From a bacterium (lineage in GTDB: Bacteria > Oederibacteriota > Muellerivitia > Muellerivitales > Muellerivitaceae), in contig DASZRK010000002.1 of NCBI GenBank assembly GCA_035549195.1, positions 231,655 to 295,654 of the forward strand: a stretch of DNA of 64,000 nt. The letters are read 5' to 3'. Made by a program: the position numbers and the translations under genes. The stretch's first letter is position 1. Every line of letters begins with the position of its first letter. Below are positions 1,501 through 33,948 of this stretch, in pieces. The notes under the pieces were generated by a model, which did no database searches, was not told the origin of the DNA, and saw only the letters and a program-made list of their open reading frames with translations.

Positions 1501-4500
1501 TCAACGCAAAATGAGGATTTTTCCTACTGTTTTTCCAGTAGGGGTCTTGACCACCACGTAATAGAGCCCGCTGGCCAGGGGGCTCCCCCACTGGTCCATG
1601 GGATCAAGCTTCACTAAGGACCCCGGGGTCATATTGTGGATGTTCTTCTCGGCCACTAAGCGGAAGGCGGTGGTAAAGACCCGCACTTGGACATCGGTAG
1701 GAGCGTTCAGGGGAACGGCGACCTGGATGGGTTGGGTCCCGTCCGAAGGGTTGGGATAAACGACCGGCTTGGACCAGGTCGGAGTGGCGGTAGGGATGCC
1801 ACCGACCGTCACTTCCGCCCCGTCGTAGGGGATCCCCGTGGCCGTTCCGCTCCCCGAGCCCGTGGTGACGACGACCCCGGTCAGGGATGTCTGATAGGTC
1901 CCCGAAGGAGCGCTGGATGAGATATCCAGGACGATCAAGAGGTCTTGGGTCGCCGATCCGGGTAGGACGTCGCTGAGACCGACCGTAAGGGTCCCATCAT
2001 TGGCCGGGTAGGTCCCACTGGCTAAAAGGCTGTCGCCTCCATCCACGATCCCGTTCCCGTTGCTATCCAGGTAGACCTTGACCGAGGTGATTCCGGTCTG
2101 GTCGTTGCCCGTTCCGGAAGCCGTCAAGGAGATCTGTCCCACCGTCGTAGGACCGCCGGTCAGGTTCTGGAGCTGGACCTGCATCACCGGGACCTGCGGG
2201 GCGCCAGGAGCCTGGTTCGAATCCGGAGGCGCCGCCGGTCCAGCGGAAACCTGGAGGACCGGACCGGTCGTCGGGGTATTTGTCGGGGTTTGGGTCTTGG
2301 TCGGGCTGGAGGTCGGCGAAGGCGAATTCGTGGCCGTGGCCGTCAGCGTCGGTGTCAAGGTCCGGGTCGCGGTGGGACTGTGGGTGGGCGTGGCGGTGGG
2401 GGCCGGAGGGGTCAAGGTCCCCGTAGGGCTATCGGTCGGCGTCCCCGTCGGGGAGGCCGTGGGGGTCAAGGTCGCCGAAAAAGTCGCCGTCGAGGTCAGG
2501 CTGGCCGTCGGACTTGCGCTGGGCGTCGCGGATGGGGTGGCTGTCGGCGAGAAGGTCGGGGTCGAGGTGGGGGTACGGGTCGGACTGGAGGTGGCCGAAG
2601 GGGTCGGTGTGGGCGTCGGGCTCGAGGCGCAGGTCACCGGCGCCACATCGGGCGGGAGCGAACCCAACCGGCTTTGCAACTGGGCGTCGAAAAGCGACGG
2701 CGGGTCCAGGTTGGCCCGGTCGATCCCCTCATAGGCCACGTTCCCCCGCGGGCCCACTTGAGGCGCGTTCCCGCTCATGACCGTTCCATAAACGTAGGTC
2801 GCGGTCAGGTCCTGGGAATTGTCATAAATGGTGGCTCCCCCGGTGGGGCCGATGATGAGGGCATCCGAATCCGAGGTGTAGGTGGCCGGGGAACATTGCA
2901 CCGACCCCGCCTGCCAGTTGCCATAGGGATTGGCCGAGGTTCCCGAGTAGTTCCACACCACCCCGCCCGCGAAGGTCTCATAGGCATTGTTGCTTTGGGT
3001 CTCCCGGTTCTCGGCCAGGAGCCCGTTATTGGTCTGGGTCATCATGTCCCACAGGAGCCTTTGCGAATAGGCGAAATGGGTATCGTCGCATTCCATGGTC
3101 ACGCTGGCCGAATTCCCCATGGTCTTGATGGAGTTGCAGCGTGTGTAGACCACCATGTTGGTCATGGCGTATTCGGTGGTGAAGTTATGGCGCAGGTTCG
3201 TGGCCGTACAGCGTTTGAAGAGCACCGCCGAAGAGGCGTAGGTGTAGAACCCGTAGCCCCAACCCCCGCCGCCATAGTCCTGGGCCCCGGTGATGGAACA
3301 ATCCAGGACGGTGATTCGGGTGGACCAGGCGGGTTTGATGCCGTTCTTGGCGACATTGAGGACCTTCACGTCCCGGGCCCAACCGTTGAAGACGCCCTTG
3401 AAGGCCAAGGCGGTCCCCGCCGGGCGGCCCGAATCGTTGCTGTTGGCCAGGACCTGGATCGTCATCCCTTCGATGCCGTCGTTCTCGATGTATTGGCCCC
3501 CGTTGGGCTTGTAGAACCAGACCGTGGCGTCGCTGTTGTGCAGGCTGAAGGGGATGGGCGCGTCCAGGGTGATGACGTTGCCCGCGATGGCCGTGATCTT
3601 GCGCGGATAGCAGAGGGTGTTGCTGAAGGCCCCATCGGTGCCGGTACCCGGCGGGTCCGTGGTCCAGTTGCCGGCGCTGTTGATCGTGGAAAAATTGGGC
3701 CAGAAATACTGCTGGACCACCACCCAGTTCCCCACCGCGAAGGAAGCGGCGGAACCCACCGTGACGGACAGGTCCCCCCGGTTCACGTCGGCGCAGCTGG
3801 TCGTGACCGGCGCCTTGCCCGGCTCCGCCCATTGGCTGTAGGAGATCCCGCCGCCGCCCATGAAGGTGAAGGGCGCCTCGGTGAGCTTGTCCCCCGGGTT
3901 ATAGGAGGAGGCGATCACCACCGTGGTGGCCCCGCTTCCCGCTCCCAGGATGCGGATATTCCCGCCGGTGATGGTGACGGTCCCCGAAAGGGTCACGGAG
4001 CCGGAAGGGAGCCAAAGGGTGCCGCCGCCCATCCCCACCAGTGTGGAAAGCCCGGTCCTGACCGCGGTCGTAATGTCCCCCGAGGACGAGACGGTCACGT
4101 TGTTGCAGGGGATGGCGTCCCCCAACCCGACTTGGGAGAGCTTGTAACCACTGTAGGAATAATCATCCAGCTTGAAGGGCCGTCCACCCAAGGTCACGCT
4201 CTGGGCCACCCAGTTGGGCCCGCTGGGTTGCAGGAAGACCGAGTTCCAGGCCCCCAAGGGCGTGGGCGTGATCGTGGGCGAGTTGGTCGGACTGGGGGAA
4301 GGGGTGGCGGTGAAGGACGCGGTCGGTGTCGTCGAAGCCGTCGGACTGGAGGTAGGGCTCGAAGTGGGGCTGTTGGTCGGGCTCAGGGTGGGGGTCCAGG
4401 TGGGCGTCGCCGTGGGGCTGTTGGAGGGGGTCGGCGTGGCCGTGGAGCACCCCATGAAAAGGCGGAGGTTGTCCAGGTAGAAGGTGCCCGTGACCGTGCC

Positions 4501-6996
4501 AGGCCCGGAGTTATAAACGAACTCGAGGGCCGTGATGGAAGAGCCCTGGGTGATGCCGCCCGCCGCCCAATTGATGTTGAAGGTCACATCGTTGTTCTGC
4601 CCCGCTACCAGGGTCGGGGTGTCGCCCGAGATGGGCTGGTAGAAAGTGGTCGGCGAATCGGCGCGCAGGAACAATTGGGTCCACCCTTGGCCCGCGGTCA
4701 AGGAGGAGGATACGTTGATGTCCAACTTCAGTTGGGTGACGCTGGTCCAGTCATTGGGGGTGAATCCGGTCAGGTTGAAGAGCTGATCGTTCCAACTGGC
4801 GCCGGTGGTCACGTTCACCTGCAGGCTGTGGGTCCCTTGGGTGGCATTCAATGTGGTCACAGCCCGGGAAGCGTTGGTCCCCGACCAGGTCCCGTTCTCC
4901 GCCAGGGTCTCGGCCCCGTTCAAGAGGACCACGCAAACGGTGGCCGTGGGGCTGGGAGTGGCTGTGGGGGTCAGGGTGGCCGTGGAACTGGGGGTCGGCG
5001 TAGCGGTGGCGAGGGTGCCCGTGGGAGTGGCCGTCGGCGTGGCGGTGGGGGATGTATTCACCGCGAAGGCCGAGAGCAGGAACTGGTATTTGCCCTGGTA
5101 TCCCTGGTCGGGCTCGGTGACCTCCCAGGAATCCTCGGGCCATGTGTTCCCCCAATCCTTATAGGACTTCATGGGCGGTTGGCCCTGCGGCGGGTTGAGG
5201 GTCGGTCCCGAATAGGAGGCGTCGGGCGCGAAGTTCTGGTTGGGTCCTCCCGCCAGGATCCCCGGCGCCGGCCCCACCGCCCCGCCACCCGTGTTCCCGT
5301 CGAAGGTCGTCCCTTGGTAGAACCAACTGTGGTAGATGGACATGATCGATTTGGAGGCCCCCAGGTTGGCACCCTGGGTCCCCATGTTGGTCAGATAGAC
5401 CCAGTTCAAGGGGTTTCGGCCATGGAAATAATGGAGGTACTCCTCCGCTTGGTTCGCGTAAGCCGTGTTCTGGGCCGGGTTGGCATTGGTCTTCACGGCG
5501 AAAAGGAGTTGGTTGCCCCAGGAAGCCTTCAACTGGTTGGAGCCCCAGGTGTAATGCCCCGGGTACATGTAGCCCAAGTAGGGATCGTTCACCTGCTGGT
5601 TCATGATGTAGTTCTGGCATTCGTTCTTCAGGGAGTTCTTGATGGCCGTCACCACCGCGGCCGTCGCCCCCGGGGCCAGGCAATAGGACACCATCCCCAA
5701 TTCCAGCGGCTCGCAAAGGGACGCGTCGAAATGGTCGGCCCCTGCGTTGGGCGGATTGGAGACCGGCCGGAAAGAGCTTTCAATGACCGCTGAGGAGTTG
5801 TAATTGGCGTCGAAATAGGTCTGGTAGGTGGCGCTCCCGGTCAGGGCGAAAAGTTCGGCGGCGGCGGCCACCCGGGCCTGGGCGTCCCAGGCCGAGGATT
5901 GGTTGGCGTTGGCGCTGGAAACCCCGGTGGAATCGAAGGTGACCGGCGAGGGATTGGCGGAAAGATAGCCCCAAGCCGAGACCGCGGCGTTCTGCAGTGT
6001 CACCGCGTAGGAGCTATAGAGCGGATAGGCCTGGAAGAGCCGCGCCCCCAGGGCAAAGGCCATGGCCCCGGTGGCGGTGGCGGTGGTGGAGACGTTCAGG
6101 TAGTAGCGCTTGGCGGTGTCGTTGGCCGGGTTCCCCGGGTTGTTGGAGGTGCTCGCGTTGCTGTAACCCACCATCGAATAAAGGGCCCCGTCGCTGGAGC
6201 GCTGCATGCGCAGCATCCAGTCCAGTTCATATTTGACCTCGTCCAGCATGTCGGGCACCCCGTTGCCCGATTCGGGGATGTTGGTGTTGTCCCCATAGCC
6301 GTTGGGGTACCACTCCGCCGAATGCATCAGGTACCAAAGGGTCGCGTGGGCGAAGGTCACATATTTCCCATAATCCCCCGCGTCATGCCAGCCGCCATGC
6401 ACATCCCGGGCCGTGCCCGCCCCTTGGTCGGCGTTCGCATTCCAGAGGTGGGCGACCAGGTCCTGATTGGCTCCCTCATGGCAGGCGGTATGGTTCCAGT
6501 TCGCCCCTCCATTGGCCGAGGAGATATTCATCCCGCAACGCTGATAGAAGAACATCCGCTGGGAAGCCGTGACCACCCCGTTATAGACGCTGTCCAAAAC
6601 TTGGAAATTGTAGGATTGCCCGCCGGGATTGGAGCCGCCGGGCACCTGCACGTAATAGGTCCCGGGCGCGCTCAAGGTGGTGAATGTTCCCTGCCACACC
6701 TTATCGCCGGAAAAGGTGCTGTCCGTGGCGCCCGCGCCCCAGGTCACCGCGCTCCCGGTGAAGACCGTGGCCCCATTGGAGACATTGATGACGTTGAAGG
6801 TGGCGCCCGCGCCCAGGTTGAAGCTCGAAGGGCTCCCGACTCCGGTGTTGGGCTGGGCGAAGATGACGATCTTTGGATCGGCGGGCTTGTAGCCGAACTG
6901 GTCCACGATGATGTTCGACAGGACCGCTCCATGGACCGGCCCTAGGGCCGAAGCGAACAGGAGAAAGATCCCAAAACGTTTCAAGTCAGGACGCAA
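1501..6996 (-). CDS. Giant secreted multi-domain glycoside hydrolase: N-terminal Ig-like (CelD_N) + GH9 catalytic domain, CBM4/9/22-like beta-sandwich, right-handed beta-helix (pectate-lyase-like) domain, beta-sandwich domain, T9SS-type CTD
   Basis: 1831 aa with a signal peptide. GH9 motifs: IIVDQFGYKPADPK (Ig-like N-domain), GGWHDAGDYGKYV, PDMLDEVKYELDWMLRMQ, YFHGRNPLNWVYL, and C-terminal ..TEPDQGYQGKYQFLL carrying the catalytic Glu. Three TPT/SPT linkers. A beta-helix-like segment (NGWARDVKVLNVAKNG..). C-terminus [11 protein letters not shown]...[10 protein letters not shown]...GKILILR. Confidence 0.85.
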   Translation of the reverse strand: MRPDLKRFGIFLLFASALGPVHGAVLSNIIVDQFGYKPADPKIVIFAQPNTGVGSPSSFNLGAGATFNVINVSNGATVFTGSAVTWGAGATDSTFSGDKVWQGTFTTLSAPGTYYVQVPGGSNPGGQSYNFQVLDSVYNGVVTASQRMFFYQRCGMNISSANGGANWNHTACHEGANQDLVAHLWNANADQGAGTARDVHGGWHDAGDYGKYVTFAHATLWYLMHSAEWYPNGYGDNTNIPESGNGVPDMLDEVKYELDWMLRMQRSSDGALYSMVGYSNASTSNNPGNPANDTAKRYYLNVSTTATATGAMAFALGARLFQAYPLYSSYAVTLQNAAVSAWGYLSANPSPVTFDSTGVSSANANQSSAWDAQARVAAAAELFALTGSATYQTYFDANYNSSAVIESSFRPVSNPPNAGADHFDASLCEPLELGMVSYCLAPGATAAVVTAIKNSLKNECQNYIMNQQVNDPYLGYMYPGHYTWGSNQLKASWGNQLLFAVKTNANPAQNTAYANQAEEYLHYFHGRNPLNWVYLTNMGTQGANLGASKSIMSIYHSWFYQGTTFDGNTGGGAVGPAPGILAGGPNQNFAPDASYSGPTLNPPQGQPPMKSYKDWGNTWPEDSWEVTEPDQGYQGKYQFLLSAFAVNTSPTATPTATPTGTLATATPTPSSTATLTPTATPSPTATVCVVLLNGAETLAENGTWSGTNASRAVTTLNATQGTHSLQVNVTTGASWNDQLFNLTGFTPNDWTSVTQLKLDINVSSSLTAGQGWTQLFLRADSPTTFYQPISGDTPTLVAGQNNDVTFNINWAAGGITQGSSITALEFVYNSGPGTVTGTFYLDNLRLFMGCSTATPTPSNSPTATPTWTPTLSPTNSPTSSPTSSPTASTTPTASFTATPSPSPTNSPTITPTPLGAWNSVFLQPSGPNWVAQSVTLGGRPFKLDDYSYSGYKLSQVGLGDAIPCNNVTVSSSGDITTAVRTGLSTLVGMGGGTLWLPSGSVTLSGTVTITGGNIRILGAGSGATTVVIASSYNPGDKLTEAPFTFMGGGGISYSQWAEPGKAPVTTSCADVNRGDLSVTVGSAASFAVGNWVVVQQYFWPNFSTINSAGNWTTDPPGTGTDGAFSNTLCYPRKITAIAGNVITLDAPIPFSLHNSDATVWFYKPNGGQYIENDGIEGMTIQVLANSNDSGRPAGTALAFKGVFNGWARDVKVLNVAKNGIKPAWSTRITVLDCSITGAQDYGGGGWGYGFYTYASSAVLFKRCTATNLRHNFTTEYAMTNMVVYTRCNSIKTMGNSASVTMECDDTHFAYSQRLLWDMMTQTNNGLLAENRETQSNNAYETFAGGVVWNYSGTSANPYGNWQAGSVQCSPATYTSDSDALIIGPTGGATIYDNSQDLTATYVYGTVMSGNAPQVGPRGNVAYEGIDRANLDPPSLFDAQLQSRLGSLPPDVAPVTCASSPTPTPTPSATSSPTRTPTSTPTFSPTATPSATPSASPTASLTSTATFSATLTPTASPTGTPTDSPTGTLTPPAPTATPTHSPTATRTLTPTLTATATNSPSPTSSPTKTQTPTNTPTTGPVLQVSAGPAAPPDSNQAPGAPQVPVMQVQLQNLTGGPTTVGQISLTASGTGNDQTGITSVKVYLDSNGNGIVDGGDSLLASGTYPANDGTLTVGLSDVLPGSATQDLLIVLDISSSAPSGTYQTSLTGVVVTTGSGSGTATGIPYDGAEVTVGGIPTATPTWSKPVVYPNPSDGTQPIQVAVPLNAPTDVQVRVFTTAFRLVAEKNIHNMTPGSLVKLDPMDQWGSPLASGLYYVVVKTPTGKTVGKILILR

Positions 6997-7049: not shown

Positions 7050-7092
7050 CCGGCAAAAAAAAGCCGACCCGTGAAGGCCGGCTTTTATTTTA
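7050..7092 (-). terminator. Putative intrinsic terminator downstream of the GH8 gene (A-run, GC hairpin, T-run)
   Basis: Minus-strand RNA reads aaaauaaaaGCCGgccuucacggguCGGCuuuuuuuu directly after the GH8 stop at 7090. A 4-5 bp GC stem is followed by U8. The A-tract on the other side suggests bidirectional potential. Confidence 0.4.
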
Positions 7093-10000
7093 TCGGAGGA
7101 CCAGGATCTTCCCGACGGATTTCCCGCTCTTGGTGTAAACGACCACGTAATAAAGGCCGCTGGCCAACGGCGTTCCCCAATCGTCACGCATCTGAACGGT
7201 CAAGGGCCCATAGGCCTGATCGGTGTAATCCTGTTCCTGAACCTTCCGGAAGGCCGTGGTGAAGATCTGGACCTTGACGTCCGACGTGCCCGTGAAAGGA
7301 GGTGGCAGGACCTGGACCGGTCCTCCGTCGGAGGGGTTGGGATAGACGATCGGCTTGTTCTCCTTGAAAGGCGTGGGGGTGGCCGTGGCCGTCGGGGTAA
7401 AGGACGAGGTCGGAGTGAAGGAAGCCGTCGGGGTCGAAGTCGGTGCGACCACGGTGATGGTCGCTCCGCTCAAAGGCAGGGGATTGAAACTGGCGGCCTG
7501 TCCGTTGGTGCCGGAGGCGCCCGTCAGGCTGAAGGAATAACCACCGGTCGTGGAGGTCCCGGAGAAATTCACCTGGAAGGTATAGGTCACCGAACCGCCA
7601 CCCAAGGGAATGACGTCGGAAAGTCCGCTGAAGGTGGCCGTCGAACCGCTGAATCCGACCGGTGAACCATCCGGCGAACCATTCTTGAGCAGGGTCACCG
7701 AAAGAATATTGGAGGTCGGGTTCCCCGTCTCGGTGAGGGTCAGGCTGGTCATGGTCACATTGGTCGTACTGGGATTGGTCAACACGACCTCGATCACCGG
7801 TACATTGGAAGCCCCTTGCAGTTGATTGCCGCTGGGTGCGCCCGAACCGTTCGCCACTGCCACGATGACCGGCGTCGCCGTGAAGGTGGGGGTAACGGTC
7901 GGTGTATTCGTGGGTGTAAAGGTGGAAGTCGGGGTGTGGGTGGCGGTATTGGTCGCGGTGTTGGCCAAGGTATTGGTGGACGTGGAAGTGGCGGTCCGGC
8001 TGGCCGTCGCTGTCGGGGTGTTCGTCGCGGTATTGGTCGCCGTATTGATCAGGGTATTGGTGGCCGTGAAGGTGGCGGTGCCGGTGGCCGTTGAGGAAGC
8101 TGTGCCCGTCGCTGTGTTAGTGGCCGTATTGACCAAAGTCGCGGTGGGAGTGCCCGAAGCTGTCCGGGTGGCGGTATTGGTCGCCGTGCTCGCTAAAGTA
8201 TCGGTGGGGGTCTGGGTCGGTGTCTTGGTGGCGGTAAGGGTCGCAGTGGAGGTATTGCTGTTCGTGGCGGTCGAGGTTGCCGTATTCGTGGTGGTAAGGG
8301 TGGGAGTAAGGGAAGGCGTCGGCGTCATGGAGGGGCTCAAGGTCCCGGTCGGACTGAGGGTCGGGGTCGATGTAATGGTGGGGGTTCCCGTATCCGTGGC
8401 GGTCGAAGAAGGCGTGCGGGTCGCCGTTTGGGTGGCGCTATTGGTCGTCGTGGAAGTGGCGGTCCTGGTCGCCGTGTTGGTGGAGGTGTTCGCCAGGGTC
8501 GCCGTCGGGGTCAGGGTCGGGGTGAAGCTAGGCGTGGCGGTCAAGGTGGCCGTGGCCGTCCGGGTAGGCGTGGAGCTGGAGGTCGGTGTCCCACTATGAG
8601 TGGCCGTGTTGGTCGGTGTGCCGGTGTTGGCAAGGGTGGCGGTCGGAGTGGATGAGGGGGTGCTCGTGGAGGTGTAGGTATTCGTCCGGGTCGCCGTATT
8701 GGTCGGCGAACTGGTGGACGTCAAGGTGGGGGTATTGCTGGGGGTGGTGGTGGCGGTCCGGGTCGCCGTATTGGTGGCCGTGCTGGCGACCGTGTTGGTC
8801 GGGCTATTGGTCGGGCTGAAAGTGGGGGTCCGCGTGGGTGTGGCCGTGACGGTCGAAGTGGCGGTATTAGTGACGGTGCGGGTCGGTGTGTCGGTGGGCA
8901 CAATGGTCACCACCGGCGTGCTGGTCGGAAGAGGCGTGGGAGTGTTCCAGCCCATTCCAGCCAGACAGACCTGGTCGACCCAGAAAGCGAAGGTGACGCC
9001 CGACACGGGGGCCTGGGCCACCCATTGGAGGGAAGTAACATGGGTCATCGCCTGGGCATAGCTCAGAGTAGTACCCATGGCCGAAGCAGGGCCCCAACTT
9101 TCCGGAGCAAGTCCGGCCGCGAGCGATCCAGGCTGGGTGACATATTGCCATGTGTTGGCTGAAGTAATTGGAATCATGAAGCCATATTGATTGGCGTTCC
9201 CACCATTCGATGGGTCAACGGCGGGGTTATAAAAATTCAGCCGAACGGTCTGGGGCGCGGAGGTAGCCTTGATATAAAAGGCGATGTTGGTCATGGAGGT
9301 CGGTGCACTGGCGAGATTCTGATAACCCGTGGTCAATTCGGTGGCCAGGGAATAACCGGCATAGACCGTTTCGGGCTGTGTCAAGCCGCCATAGTAAACG
9401 TTGGTCGAGCCGCCGTTGATGGCGCAGGAACCGGTCACATAGGCCGAGTAGGCCGGGCCCGTGGTGGCCCCGCCGACATAAACGATCGTGGAGGGTCCGG
9501 AGAAGGTGTAAAGCTGGGGCGTCGCGACCGGCGTGTTGTTCACACTGGCGTAACCAAAGGTGAACCAATAACCGTTCACCCGGTTCATGCTGTTCCCATC
9601 CTCCACGTCGTCGAGCATATAGCAGGCCAAGGGCGTGGGCGAAGGGGTCGGAGTGCAGGTCTGGGCCCCGCAAGGAGGCGTGCCGCACACGATGTTGGGG
9701 AAATTCCCCGTGGCCACCAGTTGGGCGAGGAAGCAGACCGAGTCTTGGAAATAGGTCCAGGAACCACAGGTAGGGTAACGGCTCATCATGGTGCTGTAGA
9801 TGTTGTTGATGTAGGACTGGTTCGTCGCGTTGTTCGCAAGGGAGAGGGAGGCCACCAATACGCCCCCGATCTGCAGATCATTACAATTGGACCCTGACGG
9901 CGAGCCGTAAGGGGTGGAATTGACCGTCCAGAACTCCTCGATCTCATTGGCGCCATTGACCCCGACCCCGGCCTGTACCGTGGTGGCGAACTTGGTCACG

Positions 10001-10929
10001 ATGGAAGCGCCGGCGCTTTTGTTCCAAAGCCAGTCGATACCGATACGCAAAGGATAGCGGGAGGCGTCATAGCCCATCTCCAGGGCCGGACGGCCGGAGT
10101 TGGTGGTCGCGTTCAGGCTGGAATCGACCTGATTGGGCATGAAGCCCAGTTGAGAATATTTATTGTAGACCGTGGGCAGGAATGTCCCGTAGATCCAGTT
10201 GTTGGGAATGTTCCAGTTATGGCCCTGGGCGTCGTAGGCGTTCCAGCAGCTGAACCAAGCCGGTTCCATGTAGCTGGAGTAAAGGGGATATTGGTAGGCG
10301 TCCCCCGAGTAGATGGTTCCGGTACCCACCTCGTAACTCCAAATGGCGTTGATCATGTTCTGCCATTGGGCCTTGTAATTAATCGCCCCGCCCGATCCCC
10401 ATATCTTGTCGGCCATGAGCAGGGCCATGGCCATGTCCTCGTCCGCGTCGGTAGCGCCGTTGGCACCCTTGATGCCGCCGTTGTTGTCCAGATTCCAATC
10501 CATCACATAATGATTGCTGGAGTCGGGCATCCATTGCACGGCGTATTTCCACAATCCATCGAACAGGGTCTTGTCGTTCATCATGACGGCGATGAGCATC
10601 CCATAGCCGATACCCTCGGAGACCGTATCGTTTCCCACGTCGGGCCGCTGGACGCGAAGGGCTCCCGCCAAGGTCCCGCCCCCGCGCTTGGTCCCGCTGC
10701 TGGTCACGTAGTGCGTGTACCAGCCGATGTAATTGGTCGAGACCGCCGCATTCATCGTGGCGTTCGGGCCGCCATTGGGGAGATAGACCCCACCATAGGA
10801 ATTGTTGTGGGGAAAGGTGACCGACCCGCCGCCGGAATTGACCGCCTGGGCGTTCAAGACCGAGACCGAAAGGACGAATAAGAGGATCGAAGCGGTTAAA
10901 TTTTTGAAGTGGCTGAAAAACGATTTCAT
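7090..10929 (-). CDS. Secreted GH8 glycoside hydrolase (endoglucanase/xylanase/chitosanase family) + CBM-like domain + ~380-aa Thr/Ser/Pro/Asn low-complexity linker + beta-sandwich domain + T9SS-type CTD
   Basis: Signal peptide [29 protein letters not shown]. Exact GH8 PROSITE-type signature [20 protein letters not shown], plus [11 protein letters not shown]. The C-terminal module ([21 protein letters not shown]..) is followed by [21 protein letters not shown]...[33 protein letters not shown] sits 5 nt upstream of the ATG. Confidence 0.85.
7800..8940 (-). repeat. Low-complexity Thr/Ser/Pro/Ala/Asn-rich linker-coding tract (ACN/CCN codon repeats) inside the GH8 gene
   Basis: Protein segment [27 protein letters not shown]... 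is about 380 aa long. The antisense strand gives the spurious VGV/VAV-rich ORFs 7826..8599 and 8699..9061. Similar tracts occur at ~1..540, 2080..2730, 4170..4480, 4800..5160, 11800..13150, 15200..16050, 19130..20110 and 22190..22310. Confidence 0.7.
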
Positions 10930-11098: not shown

Positions 11099-14000
11099 TC
11101 AGCGCAGGATCAATAGTTTCCCCACTGACCGGCCGCTCTTGGTCTGGACCGCAACATAGTAGAGGCCGCTGGCCAAGGGCGTCCCCCAGGCATCCCTTAA
11201 TTCCAGGGTCACGGGTCCATAGGTCAGGTTCGAATAAGCATCTTCCCTCACCTTCCGGAAAGCCGTCGTGAAGATCTGCACCCTCACATCCGAGGTCCCG
11301 GTGTAGGGCGGAGGCAGGACCTGCACCGGCCCGCCGTTGGAAGGGTTCGGGTAGAGGACCGGTTTGTTCTCCTGGAATGGCGTCGGGGTCGAGGTGGCCG
11401 TTGGGGTGAAGGAGGAAGTGGGCGTGAAGGAAGCGGTCGGTGTCGCCGTTGCGACCACCACAGTGATGGTCGCTCCGGACAAGGGCAACGGGCTGAAATT
11501 GACCGCTTGGCCGTTGGTGCCGGACGCGCCCGTCAGGTTGAAGGAATAACCTCCGACGGCGGCCGTCCCGGAAAAGTTCACCTGGAAGGTATAGGTCACC
11601 GAGCCGCCGCCCGAGGGAACGATATCGCTCAGGCCGCTGAAGGAGGCCACGGAGCCGCTGAACCCCACCGGTGAACCTTCCGGCACACCGTTCTTCAAAA
11701 GGGTCACCGACAGGATGTTCGCCGCGGGGTTCCCCGTTTCGCTCAAGATCAGGCTTGTCAGGGTCACGTTGGTCCCGCTGGGATTGGTCAGCACCGATCC
11801 TTCCACGGGCACATTGGAAGCCCCTTGCAATTGGTTCCCGCTGGGAGCGCCTCCTCCCAAGGAGACCTGGACGGTCACAGCCGTCGGGGTAAAGGTCGGA
11901 GTGATCGTCGGCGTGAAACTACGGGTCGGGGTCCAGCTGTGGGTGGCGGTGAAGGAATTCGTCGGGCTGGGAGTGGCCGTTCGCGTAGCTGTGGCGGTGG
12001 CCGTATTGGTCGCGGTGTTGACCAGGGTGTTCGTGGGGGTATCGGTGGCGGTGTGTGTCCGGGTCGGAGTGGCGGTTGCCGTATAAGTGGCGGTGGGGGT
12101 CGTTGTGGCTGTCCGCGTGGCGGTCCGGGTCGGAGTGCCGGAAGGAGTGGGAGTCCCGGTCCAGGTGGGAGTATGGGTCGGGATCAAGGTACCCGTCGGG
12201 CTGTCCGTTGGGGTCGGGGTGATCGTAGGCGTTCCCGTGGCGGTCGAAGTGGCCGTGGAAGTTGTGGTCGAAGTGAGCGTGGATGTGCGCGTGGGGGTCG
12301 CTGTCGGACTGTTCGTGAGGGTCGAGGTGAAAGTGGCGGTGTTGGCCAGGGTCGCGGTGGGAGTGCGGCTGGGCGTGGAGGTCGGGGTGGCCGTCGGTGT
12401 ATTGACCGCCGTGTTGGTCGAAGTGGCCGTAGCCGTCCGGGTCGCGCTTTGGGTGGCCGTGGAGGTGGCGGAAGCAGTGGACGTGGAGGTCGTGGTCCGG
12501 GTCGGGGTGCCTGTGGGTGTAGGGGTCCCGGTACGCGTGGGCGTATCCGTCGGGATCAAGGTTCCCGTGGGACTGTCCGTAGGGGTCGGGGTGATCGTGG
12601 GGGTCCCCGTAGGGCTCGGGGTCCAGGTCGCCGTCCGGGTCGCCGTGTTCGTGGCCGTCGGGGTGGCCGTGGAAGTGACCGTGCGGGTCGCAGTGGAACT
12701 AGGCGTATTCGTCACGGTGGAAGTAGGGGTATTGGTCCTTGTCAGGGTGGCGGTAGGGGTAAGGGTCGGGGTGGAGGAAGCGGTGGCTGTTGCGGTCAAG
12801 GAAGGCGTGAAGCTGTTGGTGAAGGTCCGGGTCGGCGTGTTGGAAACCGTGGAGGTGGGGCTGTTGGTGCGGGTGGCGGTGTTCGTGGGCGTATCGCTGG
12901 GAGTGGCGGTGGGGCTGTTGGTCCGGGTGGGCGTGTTGGTGGGAGTCCCGGTCGAGGTATTGGAAGCCGTGGAGGTGGGGCTGTTCGTGCGGGTGGCGGT
13001 GTTCGTGGGCGTATCGCTGGGAGTGGCGGTAGGGCTGTTGGTCCGGGTGGACGTGTTGGTGGGAGTACCGGTCGAGGTATTGGTCCGGGTCGGGCTCGAG
13101 GTCGCCGTCGAGGTCGGAGTGAAGGTCGGCGTGTAGGTCCTGGTCGCGGTCGAGGTGGGCGTATTCGTGGGCGCGCAGACCACAGTGATGGCGATGGTAT
13201 TGCTGGTCACCGGCCCTCCGCCCGACCATTGGGCTATCCCACGATCGCTGACGACCTGGCAGGCATCACCGGCGGTATAGCTGTAGGACCCCACGATGAA
13301 GGTGATCGGCACACAGCTCCCGCCTGGCAGATTGCTCACCACCCAGCTCAAATTGGGGTAGGTCGTTCCTGTCGGGTTGATGGAAACCGGTGTACCCGAT
13401 ACGGTCACGGTCCAAGGACTATAGCCGGGTCCTTGGAAGGCCCACGACAGGGGATTGGTGATGTTGTCGGTCACGGTGACCGAATTGGCCGTGACCGAAC
13501 CGGATGAATTGCAGACATTCAAGACCATGGTGATGGGGGCGGCGTCCGAATAGCCCGAGGTCGGGCCGCCGGTGGTCTTCGTGAGGGTGATGTTGGGAGG
13601 GACCGTGGTGGGGGTGGCGGTGGCCGTACGGGTGGGCGTGCTGGTGGGCACCGGCGAACTGCCCGAGCAGGTCGGGGCGACGGTGGCCAATTGGTTCACG
13701 ACCGGCTGCCCATGCCAGGAGTTCAACGAGGAAGGCAGGGCCGAGAGCATGGCCGGGCAGGCGCCGTTGTGCCAGGACCAGGCGGTCCAGGAATAGACGT
13801 AACTGCGGTTGTTGCTCCCGTTGGCGAAGGTGAAGAGGGCGTTGTCGAAAGTGCCGCTGTCGTTGTTGCAGTTGGGCCCCGAGGGGTCGGGCCCGAACTC
13901 CCCGATGAAGACCGGATGGTTTGCCGCCGCGATGGTGGTCTCGGTATCCCAATTGGAGGAGTTGTCCGTCCCGTTGCCCTTGTGCCCGTAGATGTGCACA

Positions 14001-14761
14001 TCGTAGGCGAACCCATTGCCCGCGTTGGTGAAGGGATAGGAATCGATGGACCGCAGGTCATAGGCCCAGTCCAACCCGCCGATGAAGATGATGTTGTTGG
14101 CCCCGGTCCCACGGATGGCGTTGATGAGGGCCTGGTGGCCCGGGGTCGTGAAGCCCTGGGTGGTGTTCCCGCCGCTCTGCCAAACGGACCAGGAGACGCT
14201 CTTGGGTTCGTTATAAAGGCCGAAGAAGACCGCGGGGTTGTTCTTATAACGGTTGGCCACGTTGGTCCAGAAGGTCACCGCGTTGGCGTCGGGCATATCC
14301 TGCTGGCCGGTGGCCGTGCCCCAGCCGCTCCCGCAAGGGGCGGAGGCGGTGCTGGAGGTCCCCGACCAATGCAGGTCGATGATGACATAGGCGTTGGCGC
14401 CCGAGCAGTAATTGACGATGTTGTCCACGATGGTCTGGTAGGAGGAGGCGCTGCCCCCTTGGCAGCCGAACCATCGGTCCTGGTTCACGGGCAGACGGAT
14501 GATGTTGGCCTTGTAGGTCCCGACCGCGGCCTGGACCGAGGAAAGGGGCGGCCCCTCACCGGTGTTGCTCCATTCCAAACTGGGAACGTTAACGCCGCGT
14601 AAACGGACCGAACAGCCGCTGGAGGTCTGGAAGTGGTTGCCCGAAACAAAAAGGTCCGGCGGCGCGGCCAAGGCGCTTGAGGACAAAAGGAAGGCAAAAA
14701 GAAGGACGCCTTGCCTGAACCGGTTCAATGGTCTCTTTTGGAATTTCATTTCCGTACGCAC
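11099..14761 (-). CDS. Secreted GH5 glycoside hydrolase (cellulase family A) + DUF11-like conserved-repeat domain + long Thr/Pro linker + beta-sandwich domain + T9SS-type CTD
   Basis: GH5 motifs: IIRLPV, VFFGLYNEPKS (acid/base NEP) and VFIGEFGPD (nucleophile GEFG). Mid-domain ITLTKTTGGPTSGYSDAAPITMVLNVCNSSGSVTANSVTVTDNITN is DUF11-like. The C-terminal cassette is ~85% identical to that of the GH8 at 7090 and ends KPVLYPNPSNGG...[25 protein letters not shown]. Confidence 0.8.
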   Translation of the reverse strand: MRTEMKFQKRPLNRFRQGVLLFAFLLSSSALAAPPDLFVSGNHFQTSSGCSVRLRGVNVPSLEWSNTGEGPPLSSVQAAVGTYKANIIRLPVNQDRWFGCQGGSASSYQTIVDNIVNYCSGANAYVIIDLHWSGTSSTASAPCGSGWGTATGQQDMPDANAVTFWTNVANRYKNNPAVFFGLYNEPKSVSWSVWQSGGNTTQGFTTPGHQALINAIRGTGANNIIFIGGLDWAYDLRSIDSYPFTNAGNGFAYDVHIYGHKGNGTDNSSNWDTETTIAAANHPVFIGEFGPDPSGPNCNNDSGTFDNALFTFANGSNNRSYVYSWTAWSWHNGACPAMLSALPSSLNSWHGQPVVNQLATVAPTCSGSSPVPTSTPTRTATATPTTVPPNITLTKTTGGPTSGYSDAAPITMVLNVCNSSGSVTANSVTVTDNITNPLSWAFQGPGYSPWTVTVSGTPVSINPTGTTYPNLSWVVSNLPGGSCVPITFIVGSYSYTAGDACQVVSDRGIAQWSGGGPVTSNTIAITVVCAPTNTPTSTATRTYTPTFTPTSTATSSPTRTNTSTGTPTNTSTRTNSPTATPSDTPTNTATRTNSPTSTASNTSTGTPTNTPTRTNSPTATPSDTPTNTATRTNSPTSTVSNTPTRTFTNSFTPSLTATATASSTPTLTPTATLTRTNTPTSTVTNTPSSTATRTVTSTATPTATNTATRTATWTPSPTGTPTITPTPTDSPTGTLIPTDTPTRTGTPTPTGTPTRTTTSTSTASATSTATQSATRTATATSTNTAVNTPTATPTSTPSRTPTATLANTATFTSTLTNSPTATPTRTSTLTSTTTSTATSTATGTPTITPTPTDSPTGTLIPTHTPTWTGTPTPSGTPTRTATRTATTTPTATYTATATPTRTHTATDTPTNTLVNTATNTATATATRTATPSPTNSFTATHSWTPTRSFTPTITPTFTPTAVTVQVSLGGGAPSGNQLQGASNVPVEGSVLTNPSGTNVTLTSLILSETGNPAANILSVTLLKNGVPEGSPVGFSGSVASFSGLSDIVPSGGGSVTYTFQVNFSGTAAVGGYSFNLTGASGTNGQAVNFSPLPLSGATITVVVATATPTASFTPTSSFTPTATSTPTPFQENKPVLYPNPSNGGPVQVLPPPYTGTSDVRVQIFTTAFRKVREDAYSNLTYGPVTLELRDAWGTPLASGLYYVAVQTKSGRSVGKLLILR

Positions 14762-21884: not shown

Positions 21885-24011
21885 TCAATGGCGCACCAGG
21901 ACCTTTCCAACGGCTTTCTGGCCGGAGGAGCCGTCCCCGGCCTGCACATAATAAAGGTAGATGCCGCTGGCGACAGGATCTCCTTGCTGGTTTTTGACCG
22001 GCCAAGGGATATCGTTCCACCCGAGGTGTCCCGGCACTTTCACCGCGTAAAAGCTCTCCCCCGAAAGGGCGTAAAGGGAAAGGGTGAGTGTCCGGGCCGT
22101 GAGCAGGTTGACCTTGAAGTGGATGGTCTGCGTCCCATCGGTGAAATTGGGCCAGGCTTGGACCACGAAGGCCGGCCCCGGCGTGGGCGTGATGGTGGGC
22201 GTCGCGGTATCGGTCGGAGTGGGGGTGATGGTGGGGGTATGGGTGCTGGTCGGTGTCCTCGTCGGGGTCCCGGTGTGCGTTGAGGTGGCGGTCGGCGTCA
22301 CGGTGGGAAGGACCGCCACCAGGTCGTCGATCAAGGCTTGACCCTTCGGGGAACCCCAGCCCGTGGCCAGGTCGTAGCCCGTGACGGCCGGGAATTGGGT
22401 GGGGCTGCCGTTGTCCCCGGTGGTGATGTCGTTGAAGTCGGTCGTGTAGTTGGCCCCCTTGCCGATGGAATAAAGGCTGGGGTTCGCGAAACCCACCGAA
22501 CCCTTGCCCGATACCGCCGCCTGTTGGTTGACCAGGGCCATGAAGGCCGCCCAGAGGGGCGCCGAAGCGCTGGTGCCGCCGACCGTATCGTCCCCATAGG
22601 AGCAGTCATAGACGTGGCAGCCCAGACCGACCATGGATACATCGGGAACGTTCCGGTAAGTGGTGGACCCGAAGTTGGTGCTCATGTCGATCCCGGTCTG
22701 GTAGGACGGGATCGAATCCCCCACGTTGCTGCCCGCCAGGATGCCTCCTGTGGATTGCCATGTGGCCTGCGTGGGCACCGGTACCTCCGAAGACCAGGAC
22801 ACGCCCGGGCTGTTCATGAAGAGCCGGGTGGCCCCCACCAGGGTCTGGGTGACCTCGCTGTCATTGGCCAAAGAAGTATCTCCATAGGGCGGATCGGTCG
22901 TGAAGGCGCCGGTACCATCCGTCGAGCTCCCATCCCCGGAGGCCAGGAAATAGGATTGGCCTTGGGCGGCGAATAAAGCCAGGACCGTGTTCTCCGCGGT
23001 CCTTTCGGAACTGGACAAGGACCATCCCCAAGAACAACTGATCTGACGGCTGTTGTTGTCGGATTGGATCCGGTTCAGGACCGTCAGGGTCGAAGTTCCC
23101 ATATAGACGTACAGCTTGGAAAGTCCCGGCGCCATGGAGATGGCCACGTCGATGTCCAGGTTGACCTCCACTTCACCTCCATTGCCCGAACAATCCACCG
23201 TGGACGCCGAACTGAGCCCATTCAAGTAAATGTTCGAGACGGGAACGCTGATGGGCGGGGAGCATTCCGCCGCGTAGGTCGCGGGATTACCGACGTTGTA
23301 GGTGGAGAACTCCACCAGGGCCAGGTTTTGGCCCGCGCCGGTCAGTGTCACGCCTGGCGCGTAGGCATTGCGGTAGTCGCTGCCGATGAAATCCCCGCCA
23401 GGACCGGACCCTCCCACCCGGGGGACCGGGAGGCCCACGCTCCGGGGGATCCTTTTCAAGCGGGGACGGGGCCTGACCGCGTCGTCCAGGCCGCCTATAT
23501 GCACCACCGGACCCAGGCCGTCCGTGGACGGGTCCTGGTCGGGCCCATAGAAGACCGTGCCGTCGGCGCGGCGGAAATCGTTGATCCTCACCCCGAAGTT
23601 CTTCTCCACCCGGTCCGTATCCCCCTCGAATTCCACCATCAAGCGGTTGGAATAGGTCCCGGTCACGCGGAAACCCCGGAGCCGCAGTTGGTCCTGGAGG
23701 GCCTGGTACTGGGCCGCGGTCGGACCGAACCGGTCGGCCAATTCCTGGGGCGTGAGGAAATGCTGATAGAGGGGGTTGTGGGGGTCGTAGACGGCCTTGA
23801 GGAAGTTCTCCAGGCCCGCCGGATCCCGCAAGGGCAGGCTGACGGAAAGCCTCATGCGGGCGGCCGGGGCGTGACGGCCCAACCAAAGATGGGACGAGGG
23901 GGAAAAAGTCCGGTGGCCGGGAATGGCATGTGGAGCGGCCCAGGAAACGGTCCATCCACCTGATAAAAGAAGGGCGGAAAGGAGAAGGACGGGCGTTCGG
24001 TTCTTGCTCAT
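21885..24011 (-). CDS. Secreted peptidase S53 (sedolisin-like) paralog with short Thr/Pro linker and T9SS-type CTD
   Basis: Paralog of the previous gene: LTPQELADRFGPT, GGTSASAPLWAAFMALVNQ and SCSWGW. CTD ...GDPVASGIYLYYVQAGDGSSGQKAVGKVLVRH. Confidence 0.8.
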   Translation of the reverse strand: MSKNRTPVLLLSALLLSGGWTVSWAAPHAIPGHRTFSPSSHLWLGRHAPAARMRLSVSLPLRDPAGLENFLKAVYDPHNPLYQHFLTPQELADRFGPTAAQYQALQDQLRLRGFRVTGTYSNRLMVEFEGDTDRVEKNFGVRINDFRRADGTVFYGPDQDPSTDGLGPVVHIGGLDDAVRPRPRLKRIPRSVGLPVPRVGGSGPGGDFIGSDYRNAYAPGVTLTGAGQNLALVEFSTYNVGNPATYAAECSPPISVPVSNIYLNGLSSASTVDCSGNGGEVEVNLDIDVAISMAPGLSKLYVYMGTSTLTVLNRIQSDNNSRQISCSWGWSLSSSERTAENTVLALFAAQGQSYFLASGDGSSTDGTGAFTTDPPYGDTSLANDSEVTQTLVGATRLFMNSPGVSWSSEVPVPTQATWQSTGGILAGSNVGDSIPSYQTGIDMSTNFGSTTYRNVPDVSMVGLGCHVYDCSYGDDTVGGTSASAPLWAAFMALVNQQAAVSGKGSVGFANPSLYSIGKGANYTTDFNDITTGDNGSPTQFPAVTGYDLATGWGSPKGQALIDDLVAVLPTVTPTATSTHTGTPTRTPTSTHTPTITPTPTDTATPTITPTPGPAFVVQAWPNFTDGTQTIHFKVNLLTARTLTLSLYALSGESFYAVKVPGHLGWNDIPWPVKNQQGDPVASGIYLYYVQAGDGSSGQKAVGKVLVRH

Positions 24012-25541: not shown

Positions 25542-25616
25542 AGCACCAACTTCGATAAGGATCACCCGGTCATCCAGAGCATCTTATCAAAGTGCCATGT
25601 TTATTTTGACCCAGGC

Positions 25617-33941: not shown

Positions 33942-33948
33942 TGGTTAA

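Follow-up and report, generated by a model that had tools for sequence, protein, structure and literature searches.

Long alternating-threonine linkers in a T9SS-type cellulase and protease cluster of candidate phylum FCPU426: candidate O-glycosylated tethers with neighbouring GT-C-type genes

The Pro-Thr boxes of Cellulomonas fimi are Thr/Pro-rich interdomain linkers of cellulases, and in Mycobacterium and Streptomyces O-mannosylation is carried out by Pmt enzymes of family GT39, which face the periplasm, use a polyprenyl-phosphate sugar and carry an Asp-Glu motif in loop 1. The serine-rich repeat (SRR) glycoproteins of Gram-positive cocci, which include Fap1, GspB, PsrP and SraP, contain hundreds to thousands of residues of alternating hydroxy-amino-acid dipeptide repeats that form a heavily O-glycosylated stalk. 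The Bacteroidota possess a general O-glycosylation system that acts in the periplasm before export, and their T9SS cargo is tethered to the cell surface. The gene for the GT39 enzyme Cbes_1864 of Caldicellulosiruptor bescii neighbours celA within the glucan degradation locus. Thr alternates with Pro in the linkers of CelA, and deletion of Cbes_1864 abolishes glycosylation and increases cleavage of CelA (PMC6151902). Ser/Thr-rich disordered regions of streptococcal proteins are glucosylated by GtrB and PgtC2, the latter a GT-C enzyme (PMC12041528). O-glycans both extend and protect the linkers of cellulases, and the bacterial linkers in surveyed sets have a mean length of 34-35 aa and a range of 14-158 aa (PMC3490864).

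The window considered here (the whole stretch of DNA analysed, 64,000 nucleotides) derives from a member of candidate phylum FCPU426 and carries a cluster of cellulase and protease genes (Table 1). A profile of the C-terminal sorting domain (CTD) matches exactly seven open reading frames in the window, and a Thr-rich linker lies just upstream of the CTD in each of the seven. All of these cargo proteins bear N-terminal signal peptides, and their linkers consequently pass through the periplasm. The GH8 protein begins with a signal peptide, followed by the GH8 domain, a middle domain without assignment, the long linker, an Ig-like domain, a short linker and the T9SS-type CTD. A profile of the Ig-like domain matches the GH8 and GH9 reading frames, with a weak match to that of GH5 (full-sequence E 6.6e-16, no significant single domain). 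A scan for tRNA genes found none in the window.

Table 1. Features of the 64-kb window, in window coordinates
Feature	Position	Strand	Details
GH9 + CelD_N + beta-helix cargo gene	1501..6996	-	1831 aa; Thr/Pro/Ser linkers 4912-5079, 4213-4470, 2218-2679
GH8 endoglucanase cargo gene	7090..10929	-	1279 aa (translation); Pfam Glyco_hydro_8 PF01270 E 2.4e-25; weak match to TIGR04183
T9SS type A-like C-terminal sorting domain of GH8	7093..7362	-	aa 1190-1279; fold match
Ig-like beta-sandwich domain of GH8	7447..7842	-	aa 1030-1161, before the CTD; AF2 model pLDDT 90.3
(Thr-x)n linker of GH8	7843..8958	-	aa 658-1029
GH5 cellulase cargo gene	11099..14761	-	1220 aa; linkers 13544-13699, 11855-13213, 11333-11494
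GH8 + malectin cargo gene	14943..17819	-	958 aa; 307-aa linker 15177-16097
S53 (pro-kumamolisin-type) peptidase cargo gene	18858..21845	-	995 aa; 338-aa linker 19119-20132
Second S53 peptidase cargo gene	21885..24011	-	708 aa; 62-aa linker 22146-22331
DUF11-repeat cargo protein	26713..29115	+	800 aa; 65-aa linker 28657-28851, then CTD
NB-ARC/TPR (STAND) regulator-like protein	29128..32418	-	Pfam families on record for the gene; divergent from the GT-C array; position conserved in relatives
GT-C-fold membrane protein, paralog 1	32503..33891	+	'first-position' clade
GT-C-fold membrane protein, paralog 2	33949..35286	+	the paralog modelled
GT-C-fold membrane protein, paralog 3	35382..36695	+	'GH44-proximal' clade
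GH44 glycoside hydrolase	36710..38290	+	Pfam PF12891 E 1e-54; signal peptide, neither CTD nor linker; closes the conserved array unit
SAM-dependent methyltransferase	59571..60215	-	beside or near the PMT-like gene in 3/3 genomes checked
PMT_2/GT39-like GT-C protein	60227..61909	-	560 aa; D36-E37 in loop 1

The predicted structure of the GH8 CTD is a β-sandwich of about 90 aa, as required of T9SS type A cargo, and its fold matches the CTD of NucA in 8glk_D (TMt 0.73, 23% identity) and PorZ (5m11). Homologues are annotated with PF18962/PF13860 and listed by NCBI under the name 'T9SS type A sorting domain', while the window proteins themselves score 18.2-19.6 bits against TIGR04183, below its curated cut-off of 23. 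The arrangement thus resembles Bacteroidota T9SS cargo in combining a Sec signal with a C-terminal β-sandwich sorting domain, but it belongs to a different phylum, its CTDs fall short of the TIGR04183 cut-off, and the Bacteroidota O-sequon D(S/T)(A/I/L/V/M/T) is nearly absent from three of the long linkers, occurring 0-1 times in those of the GH8, GH5 and GH8-malectin proteins and 8 times in that of S53a. The sequon was rejected on this count as an explanation of the linkers, as was N-glycosylation, the sequons for which are essentially absent from the linkers in a sequence scan. None of the T9SS machinery components SprA, PorV, PorU or GldKLMN was seen within the 64 kb. The host is probably diderm.

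The first-pass annotation of this DNA had drawn attention to exceptionally long linkers in the cargo, and their length is amply confirmed in all seven CTD proteins, although the maximum of about 380 aa given there was an understatement. The Thr-rich low-complexity stretch of the GH8 protein, in whose translation the peptide quoted by that annotation ([27 protein letters not shown]) is found, spans 372 aa and consists of a 276-aa and a 75-aa segment with a break of 21 aa between them, while the longest linker in the window, in the GH5 protein (11855-13213), reaches 453 aa. In four cargo proteins the linkers run to 307-453 aa and in the other three to 62-154 aa, and linker accounts for 2055 of the 7791 residues (26%) of the seven proteins. 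They were described as Thr/Ser/Pro/Asn linkers, but Ala is more abundant than Asn in the pooled composition (T 36.8%, P 14.3%, S 12.4%, A 11.3%, N 4.1%). What sets them apart, beyond composition, is that Thr recurs at every second position in a strict (T-x)n alternation. In the GH8 linker, Pro, Ala, Ser, Arg and Asn account for most of the x positions. Thr residues at i and i+2 number 123 in this linker compared to 63.5+-4.8 in shuffled sequences, some 12 SD above expectation, and adjacent TT pairs number only 6 compared to 63.2+-4.7; both the excess and the avoidance run in the same direction in the other three long linkers.

These linkers are in frame with recognised domains on both sides and are therefore coding. 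The ACC fraction of Thr codons is 0.55 within linkers and 0.69 elsewhere, and this greater diversity of linker Thr codons argues for selection at the protein level rather than for a simple DNA repeat. Tandem in-frame duplications are found inside the linkers, with periods of 84 and 72 nt in GH8, 120 nt in GH5 (92% identity, 12814-13083) and 204 nt in the S53 protein at 18858-21845 (94% identity, 19567-19959), and since all of the periods are multiples of 6 nt the dipeptide register is preserved. The spacers grow through in-frame duplication. An origin as DNA microsatellites was considered and dismissed, given the mixed Thr codons and the long, imperfect, in-frame nature of the repeats.

Spacers of the (T-x)n type are common in candidate phylum FCPU426. 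The CTD cargo of relatives, several of which are GH8 enzymes, have total linker lengths that vary from 269 to 477 aa, and one relative (L029) reaches at least 1299 aa, a length that stands well apart from the usual bacterial cellulase linkers, as do the long linkers of the window (300-453 aa). A CTD cargo protein of another relative (L007) has a linker of only 12 aa, which indicates that CTD cargo can do without a long one. A lipoprotein in relatives bears a (T-x)n stretch of about 110 aa directly after the lipobox. Literature searches found no description of linkers, secretion or glycosylation in FCPU426, and nothing relevant on "alternating threonine" linkers.

The linker probably serves as a tether or spacer. 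It sits between the N-terminal catalytic part of the Sec-exported GH8 enzyme and a module comprised of the Ig-like domain and the T9SS-type CTD, and all seven CTD-bearing proteins of the cluster follow this design. An extended chain covers 0.25-0.34 nm per residue, and the linker would thus provide a very long, extended and protease-poor tether on the order of 100 nm that holds the catalytic modules away from the point at which the C-terminal module is fixed to the cell surface, or, in some relatives, from an N-terminal lipid anchor. We favour the reading, at a probability of about 0.5 and by analogy with described systems, that this tether is O-glycosylated by GT-C-type enzymes. The Thr residues would be modified on the periplasmic face of the inner membrane, prior to export across the outer membrane, by enzymes dependent on a polyprenyl-phosphate sugar, and the glycans would stiffen and protect the spacer; that the linkers carry O-glycans at all is, on the same analogy, about as likely as not. 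One might further conjecture, purely by inference, that the glycans shield the linkers from the co-secreted S53 proteases.

The precedents for this reading in C. bescii and in streptococci are strong. The locus resembles the Pro-Thr boxes of actinobacteria in placing a Thr/Ser/Pro-rich low-complexity segment between the modules of a secreted glycoside hydrolase, but Pro is just one of several partners of Thr here and the probably diderm host uses T9SS-type sorting domains. With the SRR glycoproteins it shares a stalk of alternating dipeptide repeats that projects a functional domain from a surface anchor; those proteins, however, employ Ser rather than Thr, are adhesins rather than enzymes, are glycosylated in the cytoplasm by GtfA/B, exported by the accessory Sec system and anchored through LPXTG, none of which components was seen in the window. 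The parallel with CelA and GT39 of C. bescii, as compared by description, extends to secreted multidomain cellulases, linkers with alternating Thr, a gene for a GT-C-type enzyme in or beside the cluster and a proposed protection of the linkers from proteolysis. C. bescii, on the other hand, is a Gram-positive-type host with free secreted enzymes and much shorter linkers, its enzyme is a recognised GT39 whereas the cluster-adjacent enzymes here form an undescribed GT-C family with the GT39-like gene some 23 kb away, and its glycosylation is proven where ours is proposed by analogy from genes. GtrB and PgtC2 offer a further candidate parallel, with a GT-C enzyme that uses a polyprenyl-phosphate sugar, extracytoplasmic Ser/Thr-rich regions and protection from proteolysis, but PgtC2 belongs to the YfhO family, its targets are the short tails of membrane proteins and it has no link to cellulases or T9SS (PMC12041528).

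The candidate initiator of such a pathway would be the PMT_2/GT39-like protein. It scores 18.3 bits in the comparison with Pfam PMT or PMT_2, for which the cut-off is 26.1, and a search of PDB sequences returned chance matches alone. Its homologues at 35-64% identity carry PF13231 and/or PF02366, and names such as GT39 or ArnT-like are on record for some at the greater distance of 25-30% identity. All 28 aligned sequences, the most distant at 25% identity, retain the D36-E37 motif of loop 1. The PMT_2 superfamily includes ArnT-like enzymes, and sequence by itself cannot distinguish a protein acceptor from lipid A or another glycan. About 23 kb separate the gene from the GT-C array. In three FCPU426 genomes it sits in a housekeeping context, where its neighbours encode a methyltransferase, ABC ATPases, a HAD hydrolase, TPR proteins and others but none is a cargo gene.

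The three-gene array would provide a second initiating activity or one that elongates the glycan. Its products are assigned to the GT-C fold through structure prediction and fold search, the model of paralog 2 (pLDDT 88.5, pTM 0.91) placing TM1 at 13-34 and the following transmembrane helix at 98-121, with two loop helices between them (41-56 and 80-92). The paralogs are predicted to be polytopic, with a Lys-containing cytoplasmic N terminus and a long first extracytoplasmic loop after TM1, and they are structurally similar to solved GT-C enzymes, with ALG12 as the best match. Acidic residues of the first loop are conserved among 34 sequences of the family, E82 and E97 without exception, D65 and E70 almost without exception and D42 in at least 90%, and they may have a catalytic role. 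The predicted cytoplasmic N terminus and the long first extracytoplasmic loop with a nearly invariant Asp are shared with ALG12/ALG9 (GT22), ArnT (GT83) and Pmt (GT39), but the array proteins, at about 440 aa and without a large periplasmic domain, have no detectable similarity to any Pfam, NCBIfam or PDB entry. Indeed, the three paralogs match no Pfam or NCBIfam family, none of the 34 family members matches a GT Pfam at E<=1 and the family profile finds no PDB sequence, and the attempt to place them by sequence in a described GT-C family (GT22, GT39, GT83, GT87 and the like) thus failed. They represent a small GT-C family without assignment, with 527 cluster representatives in 1.84 billion. 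No gene for a polyprenyl-phosphate sugar synthase (GT2) was found within the window.

The earlier count of four GT-C-type or GT-C-like genes therefore holds, the array through its AF2 fold and the PMT-like gene through its homologues and D36-E37. The co-conservation with linker cargo that had been suggested as a check is borne out for the array, whose synteny with the cargo cluster holds in most of the FCPU426 relatives that have enough flanking sequence, but not for the PMT-like gene, which shows no linkage to cargo in the three genomes. The conserved gene order runs from cargo through the STAND regulator and the GT-C array to GH44, and cargo or Thr-linker genes lie upstream of the array in about 14 of about 19 FCPU426 arrays with enough flank, an association that rests on conserved gene order and makes no claim of enrichment over background. 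Thr-linker proteins near other paralogs match DUF11, FlgD_ig and GH127 alone in Pfam. That the three-paralog array acts on the linkers is rather doubtful, its best structural match, ALG12, having a glycan acceptor, which counts against it. ALG12 is a glycan-elongating enzyme. The tandem array comprises two classes of paralog that diverged anciently and keep conserved positions. It is more doubtful again that it constitutes a dedicated multi-step periplasmic O-glycosylation system that decorates the T9SS-type cargo of FCPU426, cellulases and proteases alike, along its giant (Thr-x)n tethers and turns these enzymes into mucin-like stalks of about 100-400 nm on the cell surface.

The strongest competing account, a serious one held at somewhat under even odds, is that the array and GH44 work on a glycan and not on the linkers. 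The acceptor would be a β-glucan-type envelope or exopolysaccharide, or a surface glycolipid to which T9SS cargo is attached, the siting by the cellulase cluster would reflect shared STAND regulation, and the linkers might owe any glycans to some other enzyme, or carry none. The conserved operon partner of the array, GH44, has a signal peptide yet bears neither linker nor CTD, and it recalls the endoglucanases, such as BcsZ, that occur in polysaccharide-synthesis operons. Distant members of the array family have C-terminal extensions that match CBM4/9/16/22/27 modules (4xup at E 1.2e-4, 2zey and 1gui by PDB profile; Pfam CBM_4_9 in 2 of 16), but these matches are weak (E 1e-4 to 0.03), the three paralogs of the window lack such an extension, and the gene neighbours of the CBM-fused relatives give no functional clue. 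The Acidobacteriota carry a single copy of the array family, and 25 of their 26 loci are without a Thr-linker gene within about 10 kb, the exception having a Thr-rich linker ORF of 70 aa; the neighbours of these copies (GH19/PG-binding, trypsin-like and unknown proteins) are likewise uninformative on function. Other FCPU426 paralogs adjoin GH3 and GH127-like genes without linkers. Against a glycan acceptor, the ranking of GT-C folds is no predictor of acceptor, the synteny of array and cargo fits the cargo as acceptor, and some single-copy paralog loci of FCPU426 (L029, L031 and L036) have giant (T-x)n proteins encoded no more than 10 kb away.

It is unlikely, though well short of negligible, that the linkers are unmodified spacers in which alternating β-branched Thr and Pro make an intrinsically poor protease substrate, with the four GT-C proteins serving unrelated envelope functions. 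Pro, at 14% of linker residues overall, occupies 26% of the x positions, and charged and aromatic residues are depleted. The lack of a donor synthase gene in the window and the housekeeping surroundings of the PMT-like gene would also agree with such a spacer, as would the report that bacterial cellulase linkers lean more on Pro and have fewer sites for O-glycans (PMC3490864). However, 37% Thr with near-total avoidance of TT is hard to explain by stiffness alone, Thr is kept in the large linkers while Ala, Ser, Arg and Asn freely replace Pro, and Thr/Pro- or Ser/Thr-rich extracytoplasmic regions have proved to be glycosylated where tested in other bacteria.

A very improbable alternative treats the alternating Thr face not as part of a passive linker but as a binding surface for cellulose or the cell envelope. 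A two-residue period would place every Thr on one face of an extended strand, and, by way of analogy, Thr arrays form the ice-binding faces of antifreeze proteins; but the frequent Pro would break β-sheet formation, linker length is highly variable among the cargo of relatives, peptidases carry such a stretch too and so do lipoproteins behind the lipobox, and the aromatic residues typical of cellulose binding are depleted. Finally, many database homologues are fragments on short contigs, which shows that such repeats break assemblies, but a mis-assembled or non-coding artefact can be practically dismissed given the uninterrupted reading frames over 0.2-1.4 kb that join recognised domains in each of the seven genes, diverse codon choice and the same architecture in independent long-contig MAGs.

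The reading of the linkers as O-glycosylated tethers would supply concrete candidates for a diderm pathway of protein O-glycosylation outside the Bacteroidota and Proteobacteria. Expression of these enzymes in another host may then require a matching glycosyltransferase, as the authors of the C. bescii study suggest for the transfer of a CelA-type set of cellulases to other hosts (PMC6151902). In peat and soil, the uncultured FCPU426 lineage degrades cellulose, and if its tethers are indeed glycosylated, its cellulases and proteases would be displayed on mucin-like stalks about 10x longer than known cellulase linkers, a means of retaining enzymes near the cell unlike that of cellulosomes or of the surface systems of Cytophaga and the Bacteroidota.

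A profile search of the window with the T9SS-type C-terminal domain (CTD) recovers exactly seven open reading frames, the secreted cargo proteins listed below, and in all seven a Thr-rich stretch lies immediately upstream of this domain. Linker lengths go up to 453 aa (GH5 protein), with 338 aa for one S53 peptidase and 307 aa for the GH8-malectin protein, and linker makes up 26% of residues across the seven; the very long Thr-rich linkers reported in the first-pass annotation are confirmed and were, if anything, understated. In a survey of bacterial GH6/CBM2 cellulases, linkers had a mean length of 34-35 aa (range 14-158; PMC3490864); the long ones in the window are about tenfold longer than usual. 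The linkers contain Thr (36.8%), Pro (14.3%), Ser (12.4%), Ala (11.3%) and Asn (4.1%), and are depleted in Glu, Lys, Gln and aromatic residues. What tells most about them is their strict period of two residues: along the GH8 linker, a Thr is followed by another at i+2 in 123 cases, where shuffled sequences give 63.5±4.8, and adjacent Thr-Thr pairs number 6, where shuffling gives 63.2±4.7. The same period is found in the GH5 and S53 linkers and is looser in that of the GH8-malectin protein. The partner residue is Pro (26%) or Ala (24%), followed by Ser, Arg or Asn.

Features of the window and of fetched loci of relatives (L numbers)
Feature	Sequence	Position	Strand	Remarks
GH9	window	1501-6996	-	secreted cargo
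GH8	window	7090-10929		secreted cargo; holds the interval flagged in the first-pass annotation
Thr-rich low-complexity stretch of GH8	window	7843-8958		aa 658-1029; contains the peptide quoted in that annotation
Linker duplication	window	7928-8091		period 84 nt
GH5	window	11099-14761		secreted cargo
Linker duplication	window	12814-13083		period 120 nt, 92% identity
GH8+malectin	window	14943-17819		secreted cargo
S53 pro-kumamolisin-type peptidase, first	window	18858-21845		secreted cargo
Linker duplication	window	19567-19959		period 204 nt, 94% identity
S53 pro-kumamolisin-type peptidase, second	window	21885-24011		secreted cargo
Low-GC stretch	window	24001-26000		GC 0.51 (~0.62 elsewhere)
NHL-repeat beta-propeller gene	window	24339-25565	-	in low-GC stretch
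NmrA-like gene	window	25617-26507	-	in low-GC stretch
DUF11-repeat protein	window	26713-29115		secreted cargo
STAND protein	window	29128-32418	-	NB-ARC/TPR, 1096 aa
GT-C array	window	32503-36695	+	three paralogs
Secreted TPR paralogs	window	53431-57193	-	some with outer-membrane beta-barrel-like C-terminal half fused
TPR protein	window	56768-57193	-	short Pro-Thr/Pro-rich tail at its end
Class I SAM methyltransferase	window	59571-60215	-	
PMT-like gene	window	60227-61909	-	
Lipoprotein	L008	14567-16159	+	lipobox LGSLGC
Giant (T-x)n protein	L029	13993-19569	+	unbroken run of at least 1299 aa
Giant (T-x)n protein	L031	17034-21344	+	Thr-rich stretch of at least 1091 aa
Giant (T-x)n protein	L036	18248-21337	+	Thr-rich stretch of at least 664 aa

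The secreted hydrolases are clustered in the first 29 kb, and beyond ~38 kb the window is mostly housekeeping (PEP carboxylase, Sua5, M32 peptidase, ResB/CcsA, TPR proteins and LivFG-like ATPases). The low-GC stretch within the cluster may be acquired DNA. The GH9 protein bears a right-handed beta-helix region at aa ~930-1440 (a weak Pfam Beta_helix match) and a further domain without assignment between its first two linkers, and is predicted from these features to be a two-activity or multi-module enzyme.

Tandem Repeats Finder reveals in-frame internal duplications within the linkers. All reported periods in coding linkers are multiples of 6 nt, bar one unit listed as 39 nt, and the Thr-x register is thereby preserved. 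Thr codons are more mixed in linkers than in folded domains (ACC 0.55 versus 0.69); Thr is therefore maintained in the protein even as the underlying DNA diverges. The near-total avoidance of adjacent Thr, with a partner residue that is freely replaced, suggests selection for regularly spaced Thr hydroxyls, a spacing that stiffness alone would not obviously demand.

Almost all relatives, retrieved with the GT-C membrane-protein family, are labelled candidate division FCPU426, an uncultured soil and peat lineage linked by 16S phylogeny to the cellulolytic Goldbacteria (PMC7031533). Long Thr linkers are present in seven of the eight CTD-bearing ORFs of the fetched FCPU426 loci, where total linker per CTD protein, several being GH8, ranges from 269 to 477 aa. 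One CTD protein (L007) has a connector of only 12 aa, so long linkers are usual and not obligatory. The giant (T-x)n proteins of L029, L031 and L036 all run past their contig ends and lie less than 10 kb from single or double GT-C-family copies; the L029 protein carries a DUF11 domain ahead of the repeat. The L008 lipoprotein presents a ~110-aa (T-x)n segment directly after the lipid-anchor cysteine, then CBM-like domains; similar ORFs follow GH44 in five further loci (L005, L009, L012, L022 and L044), and the window lacks this gene, two SDR genes coming after GH44 there. Database homologues of the CTD module are mostly incomplete, from contigs of 1-5 kb, which suggests that short-read assemblies are routinely interrupted by DNA coding for (T-x)n; (T-x)n proteins are for that reason probably under-represented in MAG annotations.

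The linkers most likely act as spacers or tethers (probability about 0.8). All cargo proteins carry an N-terminal Sec-type signal peptide, and AlphaFold models the C-terminal 250 aa of the GH8 protein (pLDDT 90.3) as an Ig-like beta-sandwich joined through a disordered connector of 28 aa to a C-terminal beta-sandwich. The latter matches the CTD of the T9SS substrate NucA (8glk_D; TMt 0.73, 23% identity) and also PorZ (5m11; 25% identity). Homologues of this domain carry PF18962 or PF13860, some being named T9SS type A sorting domain proteins by NCBI; the window proteins score slightly under the curated TIGR04183 cut-off. The T9SS C-terminal module of Bacteroidota is fixed at the cell surface. 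Were the putative sorting module here fixed likewise, the linkers would form tethers of the order of 100 nm, as estimated from textbook per-residue chain lengths.

The window's four GT-C-type proteins were correctly recognized in the first-pass annotation, as judged by layout and fold for the array and by homologues and a loop 1 motif for the PMT-like gene. The array family has a canonical layout, with a predicted cytoplasmic N-terminus, a long first outer loop after TM1 opening on a nearly invariant D42, and several invariant Glu residues. Pfam, NCBIfam and PDB sequence searches with the three paralogs give no match, even with 34 family members or the family profile. The family is small (527 among 1.84 billion cluster representatives), occurring as 2-5 tandem copies plus scattered ones in FCPU426 (for example, 7 in MAG MFD03726.bin.1.149) and as a single copy in Acidobacteriota (Pyrinomonadaceae, Blastocatellia). 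A neighbour-joining tree of 114 members sets first-position paralogs (window paralogs 1 and 2) apart from GH44-proximal ones (paralog 3); the array therefore combines two or more ancient classes whose positions are conserved. Some distant members (P0377, P0379, P0392, P0403, P0404 and others; alignment A4) bear a ~150-aa C-terminal domain ending YIDD-x-x-I/V-x-F, whose profile weakly matches CBM4/9/16/22/27 modules (4xup, E 1.2e-4; 2zey; 1gui) and Pfam CBM_4_9, and which hints at a glycan ligand; one bearer comes from a Bacteroidales MAG. A second extension type (P0369, P0380, P0383) resembles a small Ig-like domain.

At least 20 FCPU426 loci have the STAND gene on one strand and, on the other, 2-5 tandem GT-C paralogs followed by GH44. 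As in the window, GH8, GH5, S53, CTD or Thr-linker genes lie beyond the STAND gene in ~14 of the ~19 loci with enough upstream sequence, by our tally, so that the co-conservation check proposed in the first-pass annotation finds array and cargo-type genes in synteny. This order fits a functional unit tied to the cellulase cluster and does not name its acceptor. The STAND protein is always divergent from the array (~25 loci; gap of ~85 bp in the window), shows no DNA-binding domain and is assumed to be a regulator.

Whether the linkers are O-glycosylated at all is, by analogy, an even bet. Serine-rich repeat adhesins of Gram-positive cocci, whose stalks alternate hydroxy-amino acids over hundreds to thousands of residues, offer one parallel. 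Close precedents come from Caldicellulosiruptor bescii and streptococci. In C. bescii, a 556-aa GT39 is encoded within the glucan degradation locus beside celA, the product of which has linkers of alternating Thr and Pro, and deletion of the GT39 gene abolishes all exoprotein glycosylation, raises CelA cleavage and prevents growth on crystalline cellulose (PMC6151902). In streptococci, GtrB and the GT-C enzyme PgtC2 glucosylate extracytoplasmic Ser/Thr-rich disordered regions, shielding them from proteolysis (PMC12041528). N-glycosylation sequons are essentially absent from the linkers. The O-sequon of Bacteroidota is present 8 times in the long S53 linker and 0-1 times in each of the other three long ones. 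If the linkers are modified, the modification would therefore belong to the PMT type, which needs no sequon. Protection from the co-encoded S53 peptidases is speculation.

The first-pass annotation had proposed that the GT-C genes and linkers may reflect one glycosylation capacity, a reading that is partly supported: it is borne out for the linkers, the four GT-C proteins and the array-cargo synteny and weakened for the PMT-like gene, which in three FCPU426 genomes lies among housekeeping genes and a SAM methyltransferase, with cargo genes in none. Its product scores under the PMT_2 threshold, yet PF13231 or PF02366 is assigned to its homologues at 35-64% identity, some remoter ones (25-30%) are named GT39 or ArnT-like, and the Asp-Glu pair of loop 1 is invariant in 28 sequences down to 25% identity. 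The methyltransferase accompanies it in all three genomes (window, L078, L079), adjacent in two and two genes away in the other. The L079 locus also has a GT2 and a polysaccharide deacetylase at a distance of ~1.5 kb. No polyprenyl-phosphate sugar synthase is encoded in the 64-kb window.

In favour of glycosylation, the linkers must pass through the periplasm, the side to which GT-C active sites face. That the syntenic array acts on them is rather unlikely. A tentative alternative, somewhat short of an even chance, is that a glycan is what the array and GH44 work on. The array's best structural match is ALG12, pointing to glycan elongation and not initiation on protein, and the CBM-like extension agrees with this. 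The conserved partner GH44 has a signal peptide and neither linker nor CTD, other FCPU426 paralogs adjoin GH3 and GH127-like genes without linkers, and among the single-copy Acidobacteriota loci (Pyrinomonadaceae, Blastocatellia) a Thr-linker gene (70 aa) lies within ~10 kb in one of 26.

The family-less GT-C group, in tandem arrays by cellulase clusters, is a side result and probably the most novel item. The linkers themselves are real and take the Pro-Thr cellulase linker to an extreme: they form a (Thr-x)n tether with strict alternation, which all CTD cargo of the cluster share and which is common in FCPU426.
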